A stretch of DNA of 64,000 nucleotides from an uncultured Muribaculaceae bacterium (lineage in GTDB: Bacteria; Bacillota_I; Bacilli_A; RF39; UBA660), in NCBI GenBank assembly GCA_964473455.1, contig CAYYQX010000001.1, positions 133,380-197,379 on the forward strand, in the 5' to 3' direction. Below are positions 33,555 to 47,988 of the stretch, one piece after another (the first letter of the stretch is position 1; each line of letters begins with the position of its first letter). Both the position numbers and the translations under genes were made by a program. The notes beneath the pieces were generated by a model. That model was not told the origin of the DNA and made no database searches. It saw only the letters and a program-made list of their open reading frames with translations.

Positions 33555-33995
33555 CTAGTTATACTTTTCTAATATTTCTTTTACTTGTTTTTTGGTCACA
33601 AAACCATGAATATCTTCATTTATTTTTACAACTGGCGCCATAGAGCAACACCCCAAACACCTTGTCGTGTCTAGAGAAAACTTACCGTCCTTTGTACATT
33701 CTCCGTTTTTTATTCCTAAGATTTCTGTTATTTCACTAGCTATCTCTTCTGCTCCCTTGACATAACAAACTGTTCCTAAACAAATATTTATTTGGTATTT
33801 TCCTCGAACATTAAAATTAAAACCGTTATAAAAAGTTGCAGTACTGTAGATTTTTTCTAAAGAAATATCTAATCTTTCAGATAAATAAGAAAGCACTTCA
33901 AAAGATAAATAATTATATTTCTTTTGAATTGCTTGTAGCATTGATATAAGTGATTCACCGTTGTTTTCGATGATATTATTTATTTCTATTTCCAT
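33555..33995 (-). CDS. hydC: NuoE-like thioredoxin-fold 2Fe-2S subunit (HydC)
   Basis: CLGTVCY...CLGCCSMAPV 2Fe-2S motif. Confidence 0.75.
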   Translation of the reverse strand: MEIEINNIIENNGESLISMLQAIQKKYNYLSFEVLSYLSERLDISLEKIYSTATFYNGFNFNVRGKYQINICLGTVCYVKGAEEIASEITEILGIKNGECTKDGKFSLDTTRCLGCCSMAPVVKINEDIHGFVTKKQVKEILEKYN

Positions 33996-34086
33996 AAGTA
34001 CCCTCTATTCTTTTATTATTATATCAAAAAAATTGATACAAAAGTATCAATTTAATTATTAAAGTAAATTTATCTGTAAAGTTTTT

Positions 34087-36449: not shown

Positions 36450-37106
36450 TTAATCCTTTAATATATATGGCATATCTTCCATCACTTTGTCTATATTAAA
36501 TCTTCCGTTACCTACTGGATAATAAACAGAATAAGTATCATAAATATCTTTATTAATTATCTTTTTAAACTTCTTTTTTCTTACTTGTGAGACGTTTATT
36601 TTTTCTTTTAAAAACAAACTGCTTACTTGATTTCCAAAACAAATTATTTTTTTTGGATTAACTATACTTATTTCTTCATCTAACAATGATAGATACTCTT
36701 TGAATTGCGAGTCTTTTAAAGGCCTGGCGTCTTTTTGTGTGCATTTACCTAAATTAGTTATGTATATACTTTTGCTTTTGACATGATTATAAATTATTTC
36801 AGCAAAGGAAGGTGTCCATTCAGAGTTTTTTAGCTTCTTAATTTCATCATAAATGTTATTATCAATTAATTTCAAATCATTTAAAATCTTCCAAATTGTT
36901 TTAGTACCTATCCAAGGACTTTTAATCCCCTTCCATTCTTTACTCGCAGCAATATTTTTGCCAGTTGGGTTCATAAATATTAAACACAACTCAGGATTTT
37001 TTGTTTCTCCACCGTTCAGTATGGCGTCTAGGTTCTTATCGCCGTATTTGTTTTGTAATTTTATATATTTTTTGTTTAACTCATTTAGTTCTTCGCTTTT
37101 TTTCAT
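36450..37106 (-). CDS. Uracil-DNA glycosylase superfamily-like protein (putative)
   Basis: FMNPTG resembles the GMNPGP/GINPGL motif of SMUG/MUG-type UDGs. The assignment is tentative. Start set at MKKSEEL; the upstream GTG extension is repeat sequence. Confidence 0.3.
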   Translation of the reverse strand: MKKSEELNELNKKYIKLQNKYGDKNLDAILNGGETKNPELCLIFMNPTGKNIAASKEWKGIKSPWIGTKTIWKILNDLKLIDNNIYDEIKKLKNSEWTPSFAEIIYNHVKSKSIYITNLGKCTQKDARPLKDSQFKEYLSLLDEEISIVNPKKIICFGNQVSSLFLKEKINVSQVRKKKFKKIINKDIYDTYSVYYPVGNGRFNIDKVMEDMPYILKD

Positions 37107-37121
37107 AATAACACCAATATA

Positions 37122-37242
37122 AATTATAACATAAAAAATGAGCACAAATAGTAAACCATTTATGCTCAGTAGACGAACTTAATAAATTAAATGCGTCTAG
37201 GTAGTACTATACGTTGTTAAAGTTTCTTTGTCAACCTTTTTT
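37122..37242. repeat. ~122 bp direct repeat, copy 1 (family 2), containing a compensated hairpin, a T-run and TGTTATAAT
   Basis: Near-identical to 38404-38527. Contains TGAGCACAAAT-N8-ATTTATGCTCA. Confidence 0.8.
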
Positions 37243-38371: not shown

Positions 38372-38403
38372 ATTAAAATTTTCCACATTATTCCCCCTAA
38401 AAA

Positions 38404-38527
38404 AATTATAACATAAAAAAATGATCACAAATAGTAAACTATTTATGATCAGTAGACGAACTTAATAAATTAAATGCGTCTAGGTAGTACTATACGGCAT
38501 TAAAGATTCTTTGTCAATCTTTTTTTA
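38404..38527. repeat. ~122 bp direct repeat, copy 2 (family 2)
   Basis: Near-identical to 37122-37242. Its hairpin is TGATCACAAAT-N8-ATTTATGATCA, with compensatory changes relative to copy 1. Confidence 0.8.
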
Positions 38528-41433: not shown

Positions 41434-43231
41434 TCAAAATAAGCCAAGACCATTTGGTCCTCCAGGAATGGGTGGTGGAGAAAAAGCCAAGAACTTTAAA
41501 AAATCGATAGCTCGATTAGTAAAATATTTAAAACCTTATTTTTTCATTATTTTTGTAGCTATTTTTTTTGCTATTGCTAGTTCGATATTCTCTATAGTTG
41601 GTCCTAGCAAATTAAAGGAAATAGTTGATGTAATAACTAATGGCTTTATGATCAAAATAGATCTTGATAAAATAAAGGATATTGCTCTTTTCTTAGCAAT
41701 TATTTATGCTTTAAGTTGCTTGTTTGGATACATACAAGGCTTTATTATGGCTACAATAACTAATAAGTTCTCAAAAAAACTTCGCAGTGAGTTATCCTTA
41801 AAAATCAATAAATTACCACTAAAGTTTTTCGATAATAATAGTTATGGAGATACTTTATCAAGATTTACAAACGATGTTGATACAATGGGTCAAACCATGA
41901 ACCAAAGCATCGGATCTCTTGTTAGTGCAATAACACTTCTGATTGGTGTATTAATTATGATGTTTGTAACCAATTGGATTATGGCCTCAACAGCAATTGT
42001 CGCAACTTTTATTGGCTTTGCTTTAATGGTTTTAATTCTCTCAAAATCACAAAAATATTTTGCGATGCAGCAAAAAGAATTAGGTAATATTAATGGTCAC
42101 ATTGAAGAAATATATTCTGGATTAAATGTTGTTAAAGTATATAACGGAATTAATCAATCAAATGAGAAGTTTGATAAAATAAATGATCAGTTATATATAA
42201 GTGCTAAAAAAAGCCAATTTATGTCCGGCTTGATGCACCCTATTATGAGCTTTATTGGTAATTTTGGTTATCTTGCTGTTTGTATTGTAGGAGCTGTTTT
42301 AGTTATCAACAATACAATAACTATTGGAACAATTGTCTCTTTTATGATTTATGTCAGATTATTAACCGGTCCTCTAATTAATTTAGCCCAAGCAGCTACA
42401 CAATTACAGTCAACTGCAGCCGCTAGTGAAAGAGTATTTGAGATTTTAGATGAAAAAGAGATGAGTAAAGACTCTAAAAAACAAGTATTGGACGTTAATA
42501 ACATAAAAGGTAATATCGAATTTGAAAATATTACGTTTGGATACAATGAAGATAAAATGGTAATAAATAACTTTAGTGCCAAAGCAAAGAAAGGGCAAAG
42601 AGTTGCGATTGTTGGGCCAACTGGAGCTGGAAAAACGACAATTGTAAATCTGCTTATGAAATTTTATGATATTAATTTTGGAGATATCAAGATTGATAAT
42701 GTTTCTATTAAAGATTTGACTAGAGAAAATATTCATGACTTATTCATTATGGTTTTACAAGATACTTGGTTATTTAGTGGGACTATAAAAGATAATATTG
42801 TGTATAATAAAAAAAATGTTTCAGATGAACAAGTAAAAGAAATTTGTGAAATTGTTGGTATAGATCACTTTATAAATACTCTACCTGATGGCTACGATAC
42901 CATTTTAAGTGATGCAGAAAGCATATCAGCCGGAGAAAAACAGTTGATTACTATTGCTAGAGGAATGTTAGAAAAAAAACCATTCTTAATTTTTGATGAA
43001 GCAACTAGTTCTGTTGACACAAGAACTGAACAATTGGTTCAAAAGGCAATGGAAAAATTAACCGAAGGAAGAACATCGTTTATAATTGCTCATCGTTTAT
43101 CGACTATCAAAAATTCTGACTTAATATTGGTAATGAAAGATGGCAATGTTGTAGAGCAAGGTAACCATCAAGAATTAATTGAAAAAGACGGGTTTTATGC
43201 TGAACTTTATAATTCACAGTTCCAAAATTAA
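41426..43231 (+). CDS. ABC transporter permease/ATP-binding protein, half-transporter with degenerate signature (heterodimer partner)
   Basis: Walker A GPTGAGKTT; signature ISAGEKQ instead of LSGGQ; Walker B LIFDEATSSVD. Translationally coupled to the upstream gene. Confidence 0.85.
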   Translation: MNNQNKPRPFGPPGMGGGEKAKNFKKSIARLVKYLKPYFFIIFVAIFFAIASSIFSIVGPSKLKEIVDVITNGFMIKIDLDKIKDIALFLAIIYALSCLFGYIQGFIMATITNKFSKKLRSELSLKINKLPLKFFDNNSYGDTLSRFTNDVDTMGQTMNQSIGSLVSAITLLIGVLIMMFVTNWIMASTAIVATFIGFALMVLILSKSQKYFAMQQKELGNINGHIEEIYSGLNVVKVYNGINQSNEKFDKINDQLYISAKKSQFMSGLMHPIMSFIGNFGYLAVCIVGAVLVINNTITIGTIVSFMIYVRLLTGPLINLAQAATQLQSTAAASERVFEILDEKEMSKDSKKQVLDVNNIKGNIEFENITFGYNEDKMVINNFSAKAKKGQRVAIVGPTGAGKTTIVNLLMKFYDINFGDIKIDNVSIKDLTRENIHDLFIMVLQDTWLFSGTIKDNIVYNKKNVSDEQVKEICEIVGIDHFINTLPDGYDTILSDAESISAGEKQLITIARGMLEKKPFLIFDEATSSVDTRTEQLVQKAMEKLTEGRTSFIIAHRLSTIKNSDLILVMKDGNVVEQGNHQELIEKDGFYAELYNSQFQN

Positions 43232-43311
43232 TAATTCAAAAACTTGATATTTTCATATCAAGTCTTATATTTCAATTATGACATAGAATCAAAGGGGGTT
43301 CCCAAATTTTT
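43231..43311. repeat. Family-1 ~85 bp intergenic repeat, copy A (variant; perfect palindrome CTTGATAT-TTTC-ATATCAAG)
   Basis: Shares ...cttgatattttcata...agaatcaaagggggttcccaaattttt with the other copies. Lies between the convergent ABC operon end and the GNAT gene stop. Confidence 0.7.
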
Positions 43312-43313
43312 GT

Positions 43314-43793
43314 TTAAATATGCTTCATCACTTCCAAATTTCTGTCTGAATAATTATTTCTATAATAAAAACTCTTAGCCTTTTCGTTATAACCAAAAAC
43401 TTCTATTAATATTGCCTTACAGCCAACCAATTTAAAATGAGTTTCCATCTCATCCATTAATTGTCTTCCTATTCCTTTTGCTCTACAATTACTAGAAACA
43501 ATTAATTCTGTTATTCTTCCTCGTTTTGGCGCTCTAAACTCATAAGTGTTTTGTTCTTCATTATTAATTAAGCCTACTATTAACCCAATAGCTTTGTCAT
43601 TTTCAACAGCTAAAAACATTTTACCTTCAAAATCATTTATTTCTTTTATAGTCTTTTTAAATTCAATCTCCCTGTATTCATCATTAATTATGTTGTAGCC
43701 ATCTTTATCTATTGAAACTATATATTCTTGTAATTCAACCAATAAATCTTTTATGTCTTCGTCATATTTTGTATTATAATCAATTATATTCAT
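43314..43793 (-). CDS. GNAT family N-acetyltransferase (cassette 6)
   Basis: Acetyl-CoA-binding motif RAKGIGRQLM. Confidence 0.7.
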   Translation of the reverse strand: MNIIDYNTKYDEDIKDLLVELQEYIVSIDKDGYNIINDEYREIEFKKTIKEINDFEGKMFLAVENDKAIGLIVGLINNEEQNTYEFRAPKRGRITELIVSSNCRAKGIGRQLMDEMETHFKLVGCKAILIEVFGYNEKAKSFYYRNNYSDRNLEVMKHI

Positions 43794-43810
43794 TATTGCA
43801 CCTCTATATT

Positions 43811-43894
43811 TATTATATCAAAAAACTTGATATTCTCATACCAAGTTCAACTAATTCATATTTGGCATGGAATCAAAGGGGATTCCCAAATTTT
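43811..43894. repeat. Family-1 ~85 bp repeat, copy B (full length)
   Basis: attatatcaaaaaacttgatattctcataccaagttcaactaattcatatttggcatggaatcaaaggggattcccaaatttttt. Confidence 0.85.
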
Positions 43895-44482
43895 TTATTT
43901 CTTATTTTCCACTACAGCTTTTTTATATTTATCATATTCTTTTCGTAAATAATCAAAGGTAACTTCTTTTTTTAATACGACAGGTAATTTCAATAAATAT
44001 TCATAAATTGGCTTTTCATCTCTATATGTTTTCTTATTTTCCCAATAATATTTGGCATTTATTATTGTATCGTAGTTTGACCATCCTCTTATTAAATTCA
44101 TATCATGTTTTTCATAATAATCATATTCTACTTCATAGACTTTAAAGAATTCAAAATCCAATTCCTTTTTTTCAATAAATTGAAATAATCCTTCAATATC
44201 AAAAGCAAAAAAGGATTGGAATCGAGATAGTTTATCAGGATAGTTAATTATTCTTTCATATTCAAATATAATATCCATCCCACTACTTTTTGTATCGTAT
44301 TCATTTAAAAAGTAACGTCTACCATGGAGTGATAACTTGTCATCATATCTTTTTTTAATAATTTCTAAATTTTCTTTAAATACTGGCTTCAAATAGTCAT
44401 ATTTGTCTATATACTCTATTTTTTGATTTTCTTGTAATAAACCGCTTCTATCAATATGATAAAGTTTCATATTTTTCACCAC
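43895..44482 (-). CDS. Hypothetical protein (cassette 5)
   Basis: ORF with an AAGTGGTGA RBS. The stop codon abuts the repeat. Confidence 0.3.
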   Translation of the reverse strand: MVKNMKLYHIDRSGLLQENQKIEYIDKYDYLKPVFKENLEIIKKRYDDKLSLHGRRYFLNEYDTKSSGMDIIFEYERIINYPDKLSRFQSFFAFDIEGLFQFIEKKELDFEFFKVYEVEYDYYEKHDMNLIRGWSNYDTIINAKYYWENKKTYRDEKPIYEYLLKLPVVLKKEVTFDYLRKEYDKYKKAVVENKK

Positions 44483-44577
44483 TTTCTCTTTTATTATAAC
44501 AAAAAACTTGATATTTTCATACCAAGTTCGACTAATTCATATTTGGCATGGAATCAAAGGGGTTTCCCAAATTTTCA
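44483..44577. repeat. Family-1 repeat, copy C (full length; -10 variant TGTTATAAT)
   Basis: ttattataacaaaaaacttgatattttcataccaagttcgactaattcatatttggcatggaatcaaaggggtttcccaaattttca. Confidence 0.85.
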
Positions 44578-44976
44578 TTTATCTTTTTTTTCGATCTTTA
44601 TATGCTTAGCCATATCACCAATTCTTATTGTCTTATCGCCATCACCAGAAATTTCTGTCGGCTCAATTTCTAGTTTTTTCTGTTTAGAACCAAAGATGTT
44701 ATTTGAAAATATAGAAGACATATATTCTGATATATATGCTGTTTCACAAACACACATTTTTTCATAAACTTCAGTAACGTTTAATCTAGCTTTTACTATT
44801 TCTAGATTGCCTAAATTTTCTTTTGTTTCAGGGTCTATAATAGTTTCTCCTTTGCCGATAATTTGCATCATATCGCCTCGGGATATACCATTATTTGAAC
44901 CACCATTTACTATTAACGAAGTATCATTAATTATTTTTATTACTTTAAAATCATTGCTCATTTTCTTTCCCTCCAT
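44575..44976 (-). CDS. Hypothetical soluble protein (cassette 4, second gene)
   Basis: ORF; overlaps the upstream membrane-protein gene by 26 nt. Confidence 0.3.
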   Translation of the reverse strand: MEGKKMSNDFKVIKIINDTSLIVNGGSNNGISRGDMMQIIGKGETIIDPETKENLGNLEIVKARLNVTEVYEKMCVCETAYISEYMSSIFSNNIFGSKQKKLEIEPTEISGDGDKTIRIGDMAKHIKIEKKDK

Positions 44977-45385
44977 TTATATTACCTATGAAATTTTTAA
45001 TAATTGTATTAGTCACTTGCAATTTCTGTTCTTTTGTAATTTTGTCAAATGATATTAATACAGCCATAGTATCAAAAAAAAATTTTTGAAGCATTTCATT
45101 TTTATATATTTCGTTTTTTAACTCTATTTGATTTTCTTTAAAATTATTACTTAAAGCTTGATAATTCATATATTGTTTTTCATATTCTTTATAAAATTTG
45201 TTTACATTTATAACATATATTATCCCATTAATAATCAAACCCAAAATAATTGAACCAATAATAAATGTTATCTTGTAAGAATCAGGAATCTTATTCCAAA
45301 AACTAAACAAAGCAAGAACATTTACTATTGATATAATAAATGTTATCTTCCCTGTAAAAAAACGAGGTTTTTCTCTTATAACCAT
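44951..45385 (-). CDS. Hypothetical membrane protein with two TM helices and a coiled-coil tail (cassette 4, first gene)
   Basis: ORF with an AGGTGA RBS. Hydrophobic segments at residues ~12-30 and ~38-60. Confidence 0.3.
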   Translation of the reverse strand: MVIREKPRFFTGKITFIISIVNVLALFSFWNKIPDSYKITFIIGSIILGLIINGIIYVINVNKFYKEYEKQYMNYQALSNNFKENQIELKNEIYKNEMLQKFFFDTMAVLISFDKITKEQKLQVTNTIIKNFIGNINGGKENEQ

Positions 45386-45620
45386 AAAATCACCTACTGT
45401 ATTAAAACTTTAATATCCTTTTTCTTTATATATCGATATTATATCATTTTTACATAATATAATCCATACTTTCTATTTGCAAAGTTTCAATTCATAGACT
45501 TATGTTCTTCTATGGTTTTCTTAGACAATACTTTTTTCACTTCTCGTTATTATAATAAAAAGTATGATACTCCATTACCATTGTAATTCCGTACCTTTTT
45601 AATATTCCAGCCCATATTTG

Positions 45621-45692
45621 CTTGAAACTTTTAATTATATTGTAAAATTAAATATGAACGTGGATTTCCAAGTTTTACAATATTTATTTTCA
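45621..45692. repeat. Family-1 repeat, degenerate copy D
   Basis: Begins aattatattg, then ...cgtggatttccaagttttacaat, which resembles ...catggaatcaaaggggattcccaaatttt; weak. Confidence 0.35.
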
Positions 45693-45696
45693 AATA

Positions 45697-46191
45697 TTAA
45701 TGTTCTAAATGTTTATGCACTGAATGGGGTAATATTTCAATCTTTTCATCTAAAGATAAGTCATCTCTTTTAATGATGTGTGCAATGCATGATTTCTTAA
45801 TTTTAGCTTTATTTTTAATTAAATAGTCAGCTGATGGTTTCATATATTGAACTATCATTTCAAAGGAACATTTTTCTTCTTCTAATAAAGATAATATTTG
45901 TTCATAAGATAATTCCTTTAATATTTTTATCTTATTTGTTGTAAAATAATATCCTTTTTCATACCCGTCATTTCTGGCTTTGAATTTACATATCTCACCA
46001 AGAGGTGTAACTATACAAACTCTAATATTTTTACTATTACTAAAATTAATTAGTGTTGAACTTATATGCTCTGCATAATGAAACCATTCCCAATTATCAA
46101 TGTTATCGGTTTGATACGTTTTCCCTATCTCAAATTGATAACCGCCATATCCCATAAATTCGCTGTCAAAAGCTTTATAGTATTTAATCAT
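45697..46191 (-). CDS. Hypothetical protein (cassette 3)
   Basis: ORF with a GGAGG RBS. Confidence 0.3.
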   Translation of the reverse strand: MIKYYKAFDSEFMGYGGYQFEIGKTYQTDNIDNWEWFHYAEHISSTLINFSNSKNIRVCIVTPLGEICKFKARNDGYEKGYYFTTNKIKILKELSYEQILSLLEEEKCSFEMIVQYMKPSADYLIKNKAKIKKSCIAHIIKRDDLSLDEKIEILPHSVHKHLEH

Positions 46192-46274
46192 TTAGTACCT
46201 CCAATATACAACTATATTTTACTTTATCTTTCAATCAATCAAATATAAGCATATTGTTTTTCTTTTTTCCACCG

Positions 46275-46303
46275 CATGGAATCAAAGGGGATTCCCAAAT
46301 TTT
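46275..46303. repeat. Family-1 repeat, truncated copy E (3' hairpin half only)
   Basis: catggaatcaaaggggattcccaaatttt immediately after the stop of cassette 2. Confidence 0.6.
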
Positions 46304-46703
46304 ACATTTTTTTGTGATTATTTATATCGTTTAAACCTTCTTCATCAACAATACCAAATGTCTCTCTCAAAAAGTCCATTTCACTATGTTTTAAATTAGA
46401 AAATACAGCTCTATTTATTAAAACACCAGTGTGTTTGTTAAATCTCCAAGGAATATATTTATTTTCCTCGTAGACATTTAGATTACCATCAACAATTTGG
46501 GTACCTATAATCTTGCATTGAGTTGCATAGGCCTCTTTGCTTTCTTTTCCTTCATAATCTACAATTAGATTAAATCCGTAATGCTCTGTACCAAGCATAA
46601 CACCGTTATCTAAAGAAAGATTTTCTTCATTAGTAATCATCACGTTATCTTTAGTACTTAGTTTTAATGTAATTGGATCTAACATTTTTGGTTCTAAAAT
46701 CAT
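46302..46703 (-). CDS. Hypothetical protein (cassette 2)
   Basis: ORF. Start placed at the ATG after an AGAGGTG RBS; the listed GTG is 3 codons upstream. Confidence 0.3.
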   Translation of the reverse strand: MILEPKMLDPITLKLSTKDNVMITNEENLSLDNGVMLGTEHYGFNLIVDYEGKESKEAYATQCKIIGTQIVDGNLNVYEENKYIPWRFNKHTGVLINRAVFSNLKHSEMDFLRETFGIVDEEGLNDINNHKKM

Positions 46704-46722
46704 TATAAACACCTCTATAATA

Positions 46723-46806
46723 ATTATATCAAAAAACTTGATATTTAGATACCAAGTTCAACTAATTTATATATGGCATGGAATCAAAGGGGATTCCCAA
46801 ATTTTT
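46723..46806. repeat. Family-1 repeat, copy F (full length)
   Basis: attatatcaaaaaacttgatatttagataccaagttcaactaatttatatatggcatggaatcaaaggggattcccaaattttt. Confidence 0.85.
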
Positions 46807-46828
46807 AATTTACTCTATATTTTTTGCA

Positions 46829-47848
46829 TTATAATAAATTTTTCATATCATAATCAACTTTATATATAGTATTGTCTAAATAACTAACAATCACTAGTTC
46901 TTTATCAGTATTATATATAAATGTAGCAGCAGTAATACTATTATCATCCTCGATGGTCATATTTCTAATTGATAATTTATAATCATCTGTATGATACTGT
47001 AAAATCTTTAAGATATCTTCTTTATTCTCTATTTTTAATTTTTCTAAAAGGTCTTCACTTTTTTGCAATCTGAATTTTGTATTTGACCCAGGCTCCGCAA
47101 TTGGGAATCCTACTTCTTTTCTAGTAAGATGATTGGAGTGAGCAAACTTATCTTTGACTTCTAATACAGATAAATTATTTAGTCTCCATTCAATTGAATA
47201 AGCTCTTTTGGCGTTTGTATCAATAATATTAACATTACAGCCGCTCGCTGCATCCTCAATATTTAAATGTTCTAATACTTCTTCTATATTTTTACATTCA
47301 ATTAAATTTCTTAAGATAAACCATGTAGGAATGCCGTTAATATTTTTATGGTGAATATATATATAATTACAAGTAAAAATTAAACCATGACTATTCCAGC
47401 TGAAAGTAGAACCTGGCAATGTATCATTACAATAATATTCACAAAAGAAGCCATAATTCGTTATATACTTTATTAAACCTGTATTTTTTAATGAATAAGG
47501 TCCGTCTTCGTTATGACCTCCAATTATTTTGTTACCAATCTTTGCTATAACATCAGTACATCTTTCCCTTTCAGTATATATTTCATAACAAATAAATAAT
47601 AAATAAGCATCTCTGTCTACTTTTGCCCCATCAGCTTTACCATAAGCTTCTTGCAAATATTCGGGATACAATTTTTCTAGCTTTCCTTTTACTATATTCA
47701 AAGTGTCTTTTATTAAAGTGTTTTCAAGTAATTCTCTTGTTATTTTGCAGTTTTCTTGTATATCATCCTTATAAATTTCACCCAATTTATATGAACGTGA
47801 ATACAAATCACCCTCAACTTGACCAATATATAACTTATCAAATCTCAT
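46829..47848 (-). CDS. Hypothetical protein (cassette 1; possible hydrolase, weak)
   Basis: ORF with a GGTGGTGA RBS. GGHNEDG and Cys-rich segments vaguely recall Ntn-hydrolase/C45-like proteins. No confident assignment. Confidence 0.3.
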   Translation of the reverse strand: MRFDKLYIGQVEGDLYSRSYKLGEIYKDDIQENCKITRELLENTLIKDTLNIVKGKLEKLYPEYLQEAYGKADGAKVDRDAYLLFICYEIYTERERCTDVIAKIGNKIIGGHNEDGPYSLKNTGLIKYITNYGFFCEYYCNDTLPGSTFSWNSHGLIFTCNYIYIHHKNINGIPTWFILRNLIECKNIEEVLEHLNIEDAASGCNVNIIDTNAKRAYSIEWRLNNLSVLEVKDKFAHSNHLTRKEVGFPIAEPGSNTKFRLQKSEDLLEKLKIENKEDILKILQYHTDDYKLSIRNMTIEDDNSITAATFIYNTDKELVIVSYLDNTIYKVDYDMKNLL

Positions 47849-47863
47849 ACTATCACCACCATT

Positions 47864-47914
47864 ATTATATCAAAAAACTTGATATTTTCATACCAAGTTC
47901 AACTAATTCATATT
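47864..47914. repeat. Family-1 repeat, copy G (promoter/terminator half) fused directly to the tRNA-Trp 3' end
   Basis: attatatcaaaaaacttgatattttcataccaagttcaactaattcatatt runs into tggca. tggca is both repeat sequence and the complement of the tRNA 3'-TGCCA. Confidence 0.8.
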
Positions 47915-47988
47915 TGGCAGGGGCGGAGAGAATTGAACTCCCAACCACGGTTTTGGAGACCGCTATTATACCATTTAACTACGCCCCT
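47915..47988 (-). tRNA. tRNA-Trp (anticodon CCA), CCA encoded
   Basis: AGGGGCGTAGTTAAATGGTA...GGTCTCCAAAACCGT...GGGAGTTCAATTCTCTCCGCCCCTGCCA closely resembles Bacillus tRNA-Trp. Anticodon loop CTCCAAA. Confidence 0.85.

Follow-up and report, generated by a model that had tools for sequence, protein, structure and literature searches.

tRNA genes are familiar landing pads for large integrase-carrying elements, and integrons are, to our knowledge, the sole well-understood system that stockpiles single genes as cassettes. Small modules lacking an integrase of their own are familiar from pdif modules and integrative mobile elements exploiting Xer (IMEX), which lie between short recombination sites and are moved by a recombinase encoded elsewhere, as well as from the minimal mobile elements of Neisseria, in which one gene or a small set of genes lies between conserved flanks, varies between strains and comes without mobility genes. 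Partial tRNAs stand between the successive tRNA-anchored integrations of tycheposons (10.1101/2020.12.28.424599). It is rare for an integron cassette to bring a promoter, and neither Firmicutes nor Tenericutes yielded a complete integron (PMC4889954). Here we describe a 4.7 kb array of small genes behind the tRNA-Trp gene of an uncultured low-GC bacterium, located in a stretch of 64,000 nucleotides of contig CAYYQX010000001.1 (positions 133,380 to 197,379, referred to as the window in the following). By analogy, the array resembles tRNA-anchored islands in its target and growth mode and an integron in its layout. On balance, we favour reading it as a gene-cassette array that arose as small cassettes without an integrase were inserted, repeatedly and precisely, at the 3′ end of tRNA-Trp.

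The array comprises seven minus-strand genes together with repeat units, of which three are full (about 95 nt each), one is reduced to its first half and one, at the end of the array, is degenerate (Table 1). As tRNA-targeting integrative elements do, it lies on the 3′ side of one particular tRNA gene. A full unit consists of a 31-nt motif, AAATTTGGGAATCCCCTTTGATTCCATGCCA, right behind the stop codon of a gene, followed by the type of sequence that also trails the tRNA, which we call the trailer. The cassettes are mostly single open reading frames (ORFs) in one orientation, each unit carrying its own TGnTATAAT behind a terminator. According to Pfam, the seven genes are mutually unrelated (AAT/C45, DUF7666, FlgT_C-like, GNAT and three unknown), which is why tandem gene duplication does not explain the array. 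Besides the copy at the tRNA, the trailer occurs in three further copies with 0–2 mismatches of 33, and the motif half, GGGAATCCCCTTTGATTCCATGCCA, has five occurrences at ≤3 mismatches, with 0 expected in shuffles in both cases. None of the five lies beside the tRNA, in agreement with a preliminary description of this locus, in which the tRNA-adjacent copy was said to contain just the terminator and promoter half and to run directly into the tRNA. The same description held the string CATATTTGGCA (plus strand) to be common to all full copies; it is present in two of the three, the third one reading tatatatggca. Every repeat copy in the 64 kb falls within 43230–47914, and the base composition of the array is unremarkable at 25–29 % GC.

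The tRNA-Trp gene ends with ...CCGCCCCTGCCA on the minus strand (in a longer form, ...CTCTCCGCCCCTGCCA) and is directly followed on its 3′ side by AATATGAATTAGTTGAACTTGGTATGAAAATATCAAGTTTTTTGATATAAT at 47914–47864, minus strand. The order behind the tRNA is AATATGAATTAGTTG-AACTTGGTATGAAAATATCAAGTT-TTTT-TGATATAAT, a ribosome-binding site (RBS) and the ATG of the 339-aa gene. The palindrome in the trailer forms an 11-bp stem with a GAAA loop and is followed by a U-run. Its RNA fold of −12.2 kcal/mol corresponds to a z of −3.8, none of 200 shuffles being as stable, and due to this stable fold and the U-run the hairpin is a predicted intrinsic terminator, which a simple terminator scan missed because the stem contains too few G-C pairs. 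The U-run overlaps the extended −10 TGATATAAT; a promoter scan found the −10 (with TG) at three of the four copies, and a direct search for TGnTATAAT found it at all four. Scanning metagenome contigs with the 3′ end of the window tRNA-Trp returned 66 loci. The same trailer stands directly 3′ of tRNA-Trp in L004, L006, L019 and L063 (L numbers denote comparison loci), a close TTGATAT variant in L024 and L037, and species free of an array have a homologous linker-plus-terminator trailer behind tRNA-Trp, e.g. TTATGAATTATTCGAACTTTTTAAGTTCGTTTTTT; a bare trailer at tRNA-Trp is seen in the group of L023, L033 and L036. As the same trailer adjoins tRNA-Trp in other species, the tRNA-adjacent copy, previously described as a truncated repeat fused to the tRNA, is the native trailer of the tRNA. 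The full repeats are copies of the tRNA end plus trailer, instead of the tRNA having received a repeat.

The palindrome had also been considered as a regulator operator, an idea that arose from a similar promoter at 34009–34053. We rejected it, since the palindrome is better accounted for by a terminator whose stem of 11 bp is closed by a GAAA loop, and the gene at 33555–33995 turned out to encode a NuoE-like ferredoxin, not MarR. The promoter at 34009–34053 (minus strand) serves an operon of NuoE/NuoF/[FeFe]-hydrogenase-like genes and is laid out as the trailer is, TTGATAC-TTTT-GTATCAA-TTTTTT-TGATATAAT. Back-to-back terminator–promoter modules may be a general intergenic style of this genome.

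The core shared by tRNA and repeats is sharply delimited. Aligning the tRNA-adjacent copy with the full copies, homology extends exactly 5 nt into the tRNA (TGCCA), to the left of which the tRNA has CCCC where the repeats have TCCA. From the base composition of the window, the probability of such a 5-nt match by chance is about 3e-4. The TGCCA core proposed earlier is borne out. Junctions of this type recur in many other genomes, as (G/C)TGCCA in relatives. Two Logan contigs of run SRR8925806, L001 and L013, match the tRNA–trailer junction base for base, although they may derive from the same reads as the source assembly. Comparison at the tRNA flank of relatives shows flank and repeat to be the same sequence, and the overlap is present in other assemblies, including those of other species; the earlier proposal survives both comparisons. 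Within the window, the motif at 46272–46302 that lacks a trailer breaks inside the core (TGC|GG).

In our weighing, the evidence for insertion at the tRNA end that comes from comparing loci is stronger than the evidence within the window. An empty site is seen in L009–L012, in which the TGCCA of the tRNA is followed by ATTAGTGATTATGCGAAC..., and the corresponding occupied site in L007, which has an identical tRNA and in which the L009–L012 flank (91 % over 45 nt) is displaced by 580 nt. The L007 insert comprises a terminator, a promoter, a cupin gene and AAATTTGGTAATTCCTTAACCACTGGTGCCA, and is bounded by TGCCA on both sides; the cupin gene is followed by AAATTTGGTAATTCC...GGTGCCA, so that the insert lies exactly between the TGCCA of the tRNA and the L009–L012 flank. 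The final 31 nt of the insert begin like the window motif. A second case is provided by L020 and L040, which have an 828-nt cassette in common at 96 % identity, consisting of trailer, DNA-alkylation-repair gene and end motif. Upstream of it only the tRNA and the 54 nt before the tRNA align, and downstream the homology ends exactly after CGTGCCA, where two different trailer types follow. In L066 this cassette (84 %) is found in second position behind a unit ending with CTCGTGCCA. Distal genes are shared as well, a PNP gene by L006 and L004 and an ABC-F gene by L006 and L063, the trailer variant before the ABC-F gene, GGTGTGAGA, being the same in the latter two; the cassettes nearest to the tRNA differ between L004, L006 and L063. 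These patterns would fit the entry of new cassettes beside the anchor tRNA, and it is from such comparison between species that we infer mobility. Of the earlier claim that cassettes were added by site-specific recombination at the tRNA 3′ end, the comparative data uphold insertion at the 3′ end with TGCCA, and site-specific recombination is the putative mechanism.

The four loci with the empty site (L009–L012, from four ERR34383xx samples) carry a defence-type island downstream of the tRNA-Trp trailer, with a type III restriction-modification pair, AAA_21/RloB and HTH genes. In this clade, the region downstream of tRNA-Trp is therefore a general hotspot of variable genes.

At least five other genomes have an array with this 31-nt motif at tRNA-Trp (L002, L003, L004, L006 and L063), with different cassettes in each. 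Scanning all GTDB species genomes with the motif returned L002, L003, L004 and L006 and, beyond these array loci, a single chance match (L005, a 53 %-GC contig), and no viral contig matched the motif pattern. The motif being confined to array loci, we rejected a dispersed repeat of the REP type or a miniature inverted-repeat transposable element. The T-arms of tRNA-Trp differ between loci (GGGGGTTCGATTCCCTC in L003, TTCGGGTTCAAATCCTGA in L004), as do the genes upstream of the tRNA, yet the motif is almost unchanged; the array-bearing loci belong to different organisms. Their cargo mostly consists of small enzymes, among them several GNATs, MazG-like proteins, cupins, a GDSL hydrolase, a radical-SAM protein and a PNP/UDP phosphorylase, joined by a nucleoside deoxyribosyltransferase-like protein and proteins of unknown function. 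Single cassettes elsewhere end with ...CGTGCCA (L020, L035, L053 and L066) or CCTGCCA (L069), behind which the trailer of the respective genome occurs a second time.

Several of the contigs with arrays are short, and their bin labels are implausible. L002, L003, L004 and L006 have 25–28 % GC and are labelled Ignavibacteriales (a 410-kb contig) or Muribaculaceae metagenome-assembled genomes (three 6–8-kb contigs). These bins are probably mis-binned or chimeric, and the four loci most likely belong to the low-GC Bacilli/Mycoplasmatota clade of the window. The more distant PrsA neighbourhoods L014–L016, in which tRNA-Trp does not adjoin PrsA, were uninformative.

The preliminary description had further noted a weak resemblance of the end motif to a tRNA 3′ half, which did not hold for the window motif itself: a search of the array against Rfam at relaxed E-value returned no partial tRNA, just the real one, and shuffle tests were non-significant, so the motif was rejected as a truncated tRNA. 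It is through the intermediate variants of relatives (L024 and L030) that a tRNA-like origin finds support. L030 contains a 40-nt near-perfect tRNA-Trp 3′ half, from anticodon loop to TGCCA (p≤0.0003), about 2.46–2.50 kb downstream of tRNA-Trp and behind a single gene for a 774-aa surface protein; ARAGORN detects one complete tRNA only. This locus shows a textbook att repeat around an integrase-less one-gene insert. The L024 variant, AAACTTTGGAATTCCATTCTATTCCGTGCCG, is 74 % identical to the window motif without gaps, as counted from the two sequences, and is significantly similar to the tRNA 3′ half (p 0.0003–0.004), and the L007 variant resembles the anticodon-arm region (p about 0.004–0.02). 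The motif family is thus best read as a putative descendant of the tRNA-Trp 3′ half, of which the window type has become a conserved sequence of its own, since it does not follow the changes of the resident tRNA. Motif and trailer are about 90–100 % conserved between genomes and the cassette proteins common to those genomes are 70–80 % identical, which argues for constraint or recent transfer.

From these observations we propose the following course of events. A cassette would consist of a trailer copy (a 12–15-nt linker and the intrinsic terminator), the extended −10 promoter, one gene (rarely a few) and the roughly 31-nt motif ending with TGCCA. A new cassette would enter between the TGCCA of the tRNA and the trailer, leaving the tRNA intact and pushing older cassettes outward, and each gene would then be followed by motif-TGCCA-trailer, an att-like direct repeat. 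The block common to this repeat and to the insertion site would run from the final 5 nt of the tRNA through the trailer, and the crossover would lie at or just to the right of TGCCA. The repeat would both stop the upstream transcript, from the tRNA or from a cassette, and supply the promoter for the next gene. Insertion would be catalysed by a site-specific recombinase encoded elsewhere, for example the integrase of a phage or island targeting tRNA-Trp, in a system that may still be active. The end motif would have come from the tRNA-Trp 3′ half and may today be maintained as a conserved sequence in its own right.

tRNA-Trp is a real target of mobile elements and integrases in the clade. In L034, a 314-aa tyrosine integrase (PF00589) is the first gene behind the tRNA-Trp trailer, with its promoter placed as in the cassette genes; the far end of this element lies outside the locus, and it may be related to the cassettes as an autonomous element. 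Beside a common tRNA-Trp flank lie a prophage in L059/L083 and, in L048, a gene for a serine recombinase. L021 encodes an integrase homologue 4.8 kb downstream of tRNA-Trp, where a partial-tRNA repeat was not found. As such elements target tRNA-Trp in relatives, an enzyme acting in trans is plausible.

Several observations weigh against the insertion model. Pfam was run on the array, its neighbours and the region 21.9–39.7 kb, the other window ORFs being read by eye as housekeeping from their translations, and no recombinase or transposase gene was detected in the 64 kb in this way; neither was a recombinase gene found at the array loci. A tblastn search with the L034 integrase gave no match in the window or at any array locus, the other loci matched being only L078 and L021. 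No circular or excised form is evident. Since both the recombinase gene in the 64 kb and a circular form are missing, we can only infer the insertion enzyme and its current activity. The Logan contig L013 (SRR8925806_44609) corresponds to window 46777–47917, exactly one repeat period with 1141 nt, and its ends would join into a full unit. We rejected it as a circular cassette, because each end falls on the last or first unique 31-mer, at a k=31 branching beside segments of 32–33 nt that are shared, making it a graph artefact. A symmetric inverted-repeat core around GCCA was not found (1 of 17 junctions at p 0.01), and some insertions at the tRNA-Trp site of relatives come without TGCCA (L061, L068 and L037). 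The window motif matches the tRNA 3′ half no better than shuffles do (p 0.19–0.65), and in its possible stem none of 11 pairs is compensated, the stem variants breaking the pairing or leaving only a G-U wobble. Finally, the organism is a database singleton, as are its cassette proteins and PrsA, with just two short Logan contigs, so that there is no gain or loss of the window cassettes between strains to compare.

Homologous recombination offers an explanation that we consider unlikely, though it deserves to be taken seriously. The unit of about 95 nt would have arisen once by duplication of the tRNA 3′ end and would now act as portable homology for RecA-dependent exchange of cassettes, by double crossovers or unequal exchange, e.g. 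after DNA uptake, with neither a dedicated recombinase nor a fixed crossover. The missing recombinase gene in the vicinity would be expected in this case, and the units share 50–95 nt at 90–100 % identity, which is of sufficient length; the trailers flanking the L020 cassette are even 100 % identical over 43 nt. The relatives' junctions lacking TGCCA and the missing symmetric core site point in the same direction. In L007 and L040, however, the cassette's own trailer and the downstream trailer are of different types, which leaves the right-hand side without homology, yet the breakpoint lies exactly after TGCCA, and L002 and L003 mix unrelated trailer types although every unit keeps TGCCA or a variant differing by one or two bases (TGCTA, TGC). 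Trailers of one genome resemble each other no more than trailers of different genomes do (0.80 versus 0.77), so homogenisation is weak, and very different end motifs across lineages all retain (C)GTGCCA.

It is quite improbable, in our estimate, that the units are the immobile scars of a fossil island, left by integrase-bearing elements (phage, island or tycheposon-like) in tRNA-Trp after deletion of the integrase and most of the cargo, with the regularity being secondary. Elements that carry an integrase or derive from phages do use tRNA-Trp in L034, L048 and L059/L083, the partial-tRNA direct repeat of L030 would suit such an origin, and tycheposons provide a documented precedent of tandem integrations with partial tRNAs in between and with degenerate remnants (10.1101/2020.12.28.424599). 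The already degenerate motif is nevertheless near-identical in at least six genomes despite the differing T-arms of tRNA-Trp (L003 and L004), and therefore does not consist of local tRNA copies that decay independently. The cassettes uniformly contain one gene in the same terminator–promoter layout, no integrase fragments were found in the window array, and a whole minimal integrase-less cassette is 96 % identical between unrelated backgrounds.

We regard it as very unlikely that the motif was selected for expression, as a 3′-untranslated structure or a mimic of the tRNA 3′-processing site. Its position between stop codon and real terminator means that it would be transcribed, folding into a hairpin of 6 bp with TTTGG/CCAAA as outer stem is possible, and its primary sequence is highly conserved. 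On the other hand, the hairpin does not exceed shuffles in stability (z −1.3), shows no compensatory changes, has no Rfam match and is not preserved in the L007- and L020-type motifs, and an RNA function leaves the insertion polymorphisms bounded by TGCCA unexplained. On the grounds of its stability and the lack of compensatory changes, together with the missing symmetric GCCA inverted repeat, we rejected the motif as a conserved hairpin or attC-like structure. Chance similarity or a repeat-induced misjoin beside the tRNA, with a coincidental 5-nt overlap, can practically be dismissed: the window does come from a metagenome-assembled contig and short-read contigs break within repeats, but the identical junction in independent assemblies (L004, L006, L019 and L063, and as a variant L024 and L037) excludes an assembly artefact, and the 5-nt match, at a chance of about 3e-4, recurs in many lineages.

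Read as a cassette array, the locus can be set against the described systems in more than one respect. Like tycheposons and tRNA islands, it uses a specific tRNA, newcomers would displace older units, the units would be parted by att-like repeats, as with the partial tRNA of L030, and degenerate remnants and accessory cargo are present. Unlike them, its units measure 0.4–1.1 kb with a single gene, lack integrase, replication or packaging genes, and each carry a terminator and a promoter. Tycheposons encode their own integrases and duplicate a tRNA segment of about 40 nt, whereas the array, besides the 64-nt trailer, repeats no more than 5 nt of the tRNA; in contrast to tRNA islands, it never replaces the tRNA body, and its 31-nt motif does not track the resident tRNA. 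With integrons and attC-site clusters that have no integron integrase (CALINs) it shares mostly single-ORF cassettes in one orientation, a conserved end repeat, a putative insertion proximal to the anchor and a diverse cargo including many GNATs, MazG and cupins, and, as in CALINs, there is no adjacent integrase gene. An intI gene was not found, as the Pfam-scanned window ORFs gave no Phage_integrase match and the others were read as housekeeping, nor did the units contain R″/L″/L′/R′ boxes, GTTRRRY or a conserved bulged hairpin as attC features. Further differences from integrons are the anchor, a tRNA gene instead of attI, and the promoter carried by each cassette in place of promoterless genes read from a common Pc.

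Xer-dependent modules such as pdif and IMEX are likewise small, integrase-less and bounded by short sites; the sites of the array differ in being direct repeats without dif-like 11-6-11 inverted arms. Some trailers start with TTATGTT... like a XerD arm, but a XerC-like arm or consistent spacing is missing, and a dif/Xer link would be speculative. No 28-bp dif-like site was recognised, given that no consistent inverted repeat surrounds the core, in what is a weak test as the true dif of the clade is not known. A short core of fixed sequence is lacking in the minimal mobile elements of Neisseria, whereas the array breaks at TGCCA even with non-homologous flanks. Correia, REP/BIME, BOX and RUP elements are similar as intergenic repeats of about 100 nt with a hairpin and promoter, yet the array repeat is not dispersed but confined to the tRNA-Trp array in the window, and no terminal inverted repeats were noticed in its sequence.

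Table 1. Positions of the tRNA-Trp anchor, repeat units and genes of the array in the window, and of the integrase gene in locus L034.
Feature	Position	Strand	Remarks
tRNA-Trp, anticodon CCA	47915..47988	minus	array anchor; ARAGORN and Rfam RF00005, 63.7 bits; 3′ CCA encoded
TGCCA core, final 5 nt of tRNA	47915..47919	minus	also ends the 31-nt cassette-end motifs
tRNA-adjacent trailer, 64 nt	47851..47914	minus	"copy G" of the preliminary description; linker 47900–47914; RBS included
Predicted terminator hairpin AACTTGGTAT-GAAA-ATATCAAGTT and T-run	47876–47899	minus	in tRNA-adjacent trailer
Extended −10 TGATATAAT	47864–47872	minus	in tRNA-adjacent trailer
Cassette 1 gene, 339 aa	46829..47848	minus	acyl-CoA:6-APA acyltransferase (AAT) / peptidase C45-like; Pfam PF03417, E 7e-26
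Full repeat unit 1	46710..46804	minus	end motif 46774–46804, ending TGCCA; trailer 46710–46773
Unit 1 trailer features		minus	hairpin 46735–46758; −10 at 46723–46731
Cassette 2 gene, 136 aa (132 aa from ATG)	46302..46712	minus	no Pfam family
End motif without trailer	46272..46302	minus	homology lost inside core (TGC|GG)
Three-gene stretch	44575..46191	minus	between trailer-less motif and full unit 2
DUF7666 protein gene	45697–46191	minus	Pfam
Membrane protein gene	44951–45385	minus	
FlgT_C-like gene	44575–44976	minus	Pfam
Full repeat unit 2	44480..44574	minus	motif 44544–44574; trailer 44480–44543
Cassette gene, 192–195 aa	43895..44482	minus	no Pfam family
Full repeat unit 3	43799..43893	minus	motif 43863–43893; trailer 43799–43862
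Last cassette gene, GNAT acetyltransferase, 159 aa	43314..43793	minus	Pfam PF00583; 70 % identical to L037 gene (blastp)
Terminal, most divergent unit	43230..43309	minus	motif 43279–43309, ending TGTCA; TTGATAT-type trailer
L034 integrase	2046–2987 (locus coordinates)	minus	240–1184 nt downstream of tRNA-Trp 3′ end

Two parts of the array depart from the regular layout (Table 1). The terminal unit has a hairpin at 43241–43264 without a −10 and abuts the end of a convergent ABC-transporter gene. Between the DUF7666 and membrane protein genes, a 310-nt non-coding stretch carries a TGATATAAT of its own at 45438–45446. A possible decayed end motif (AAACTTGGAAATCCACG...) is found behind the DUF7666 gene, and 45386–45696 and 46192–46271 are non-coding; the segment 44575–46271 may be a compound or rearranged cassette.

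Outside the array, a second repeated non-coding unit of about 145 nt was observed at 37097–37242 and 38379–38525 (minus strand, 89–93 % identical), upstream of a UDG-like gene and of a 403-aa gene of unknown function. It is composed of a TTGACA-17-TATAGT promoter, two hairpins, the second of which has a T-run and is terminator-like, and then a TGTTATAAT promoter. It has no Rfam match and could be a small RNA or attenuator leader.

More tentatively, we suggest as a possibility that the locus exemplifies an undescribed gene-capture platform of uncultured low-GC Bacilli/Mycoplasmatota, an integron analogue in which the tRNA-Trp 3′ end would take the role of attI, the cassettes would be self-expressing, a tRNA-derived 31-nt end motif would be attC-like, and an unlinked recombinase would act in trans. 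If true, a lineage devoid of true integrons would thereby have its first integron-like system. Next to the large integrase-carrying elements at tRNA genes and to integrons, the array and its relatives represent a third arrangement, in which minimal, integrase-less and self-expressing one-gene cassettes with a common end motif and a precise 5-nt junction are stacked at a tRNA 3′ end across several uncultured species. The repeat itself is a compact natural terminator-plus-promoter module. If insertion is site-specific, small-genome Bacilli of gut type or from the environment would capture genes by a new route, and tRNA-Trp ... motif-TGCCA-trailer would provide a DNA signature for mining accessory genes and for finding the recombinase.

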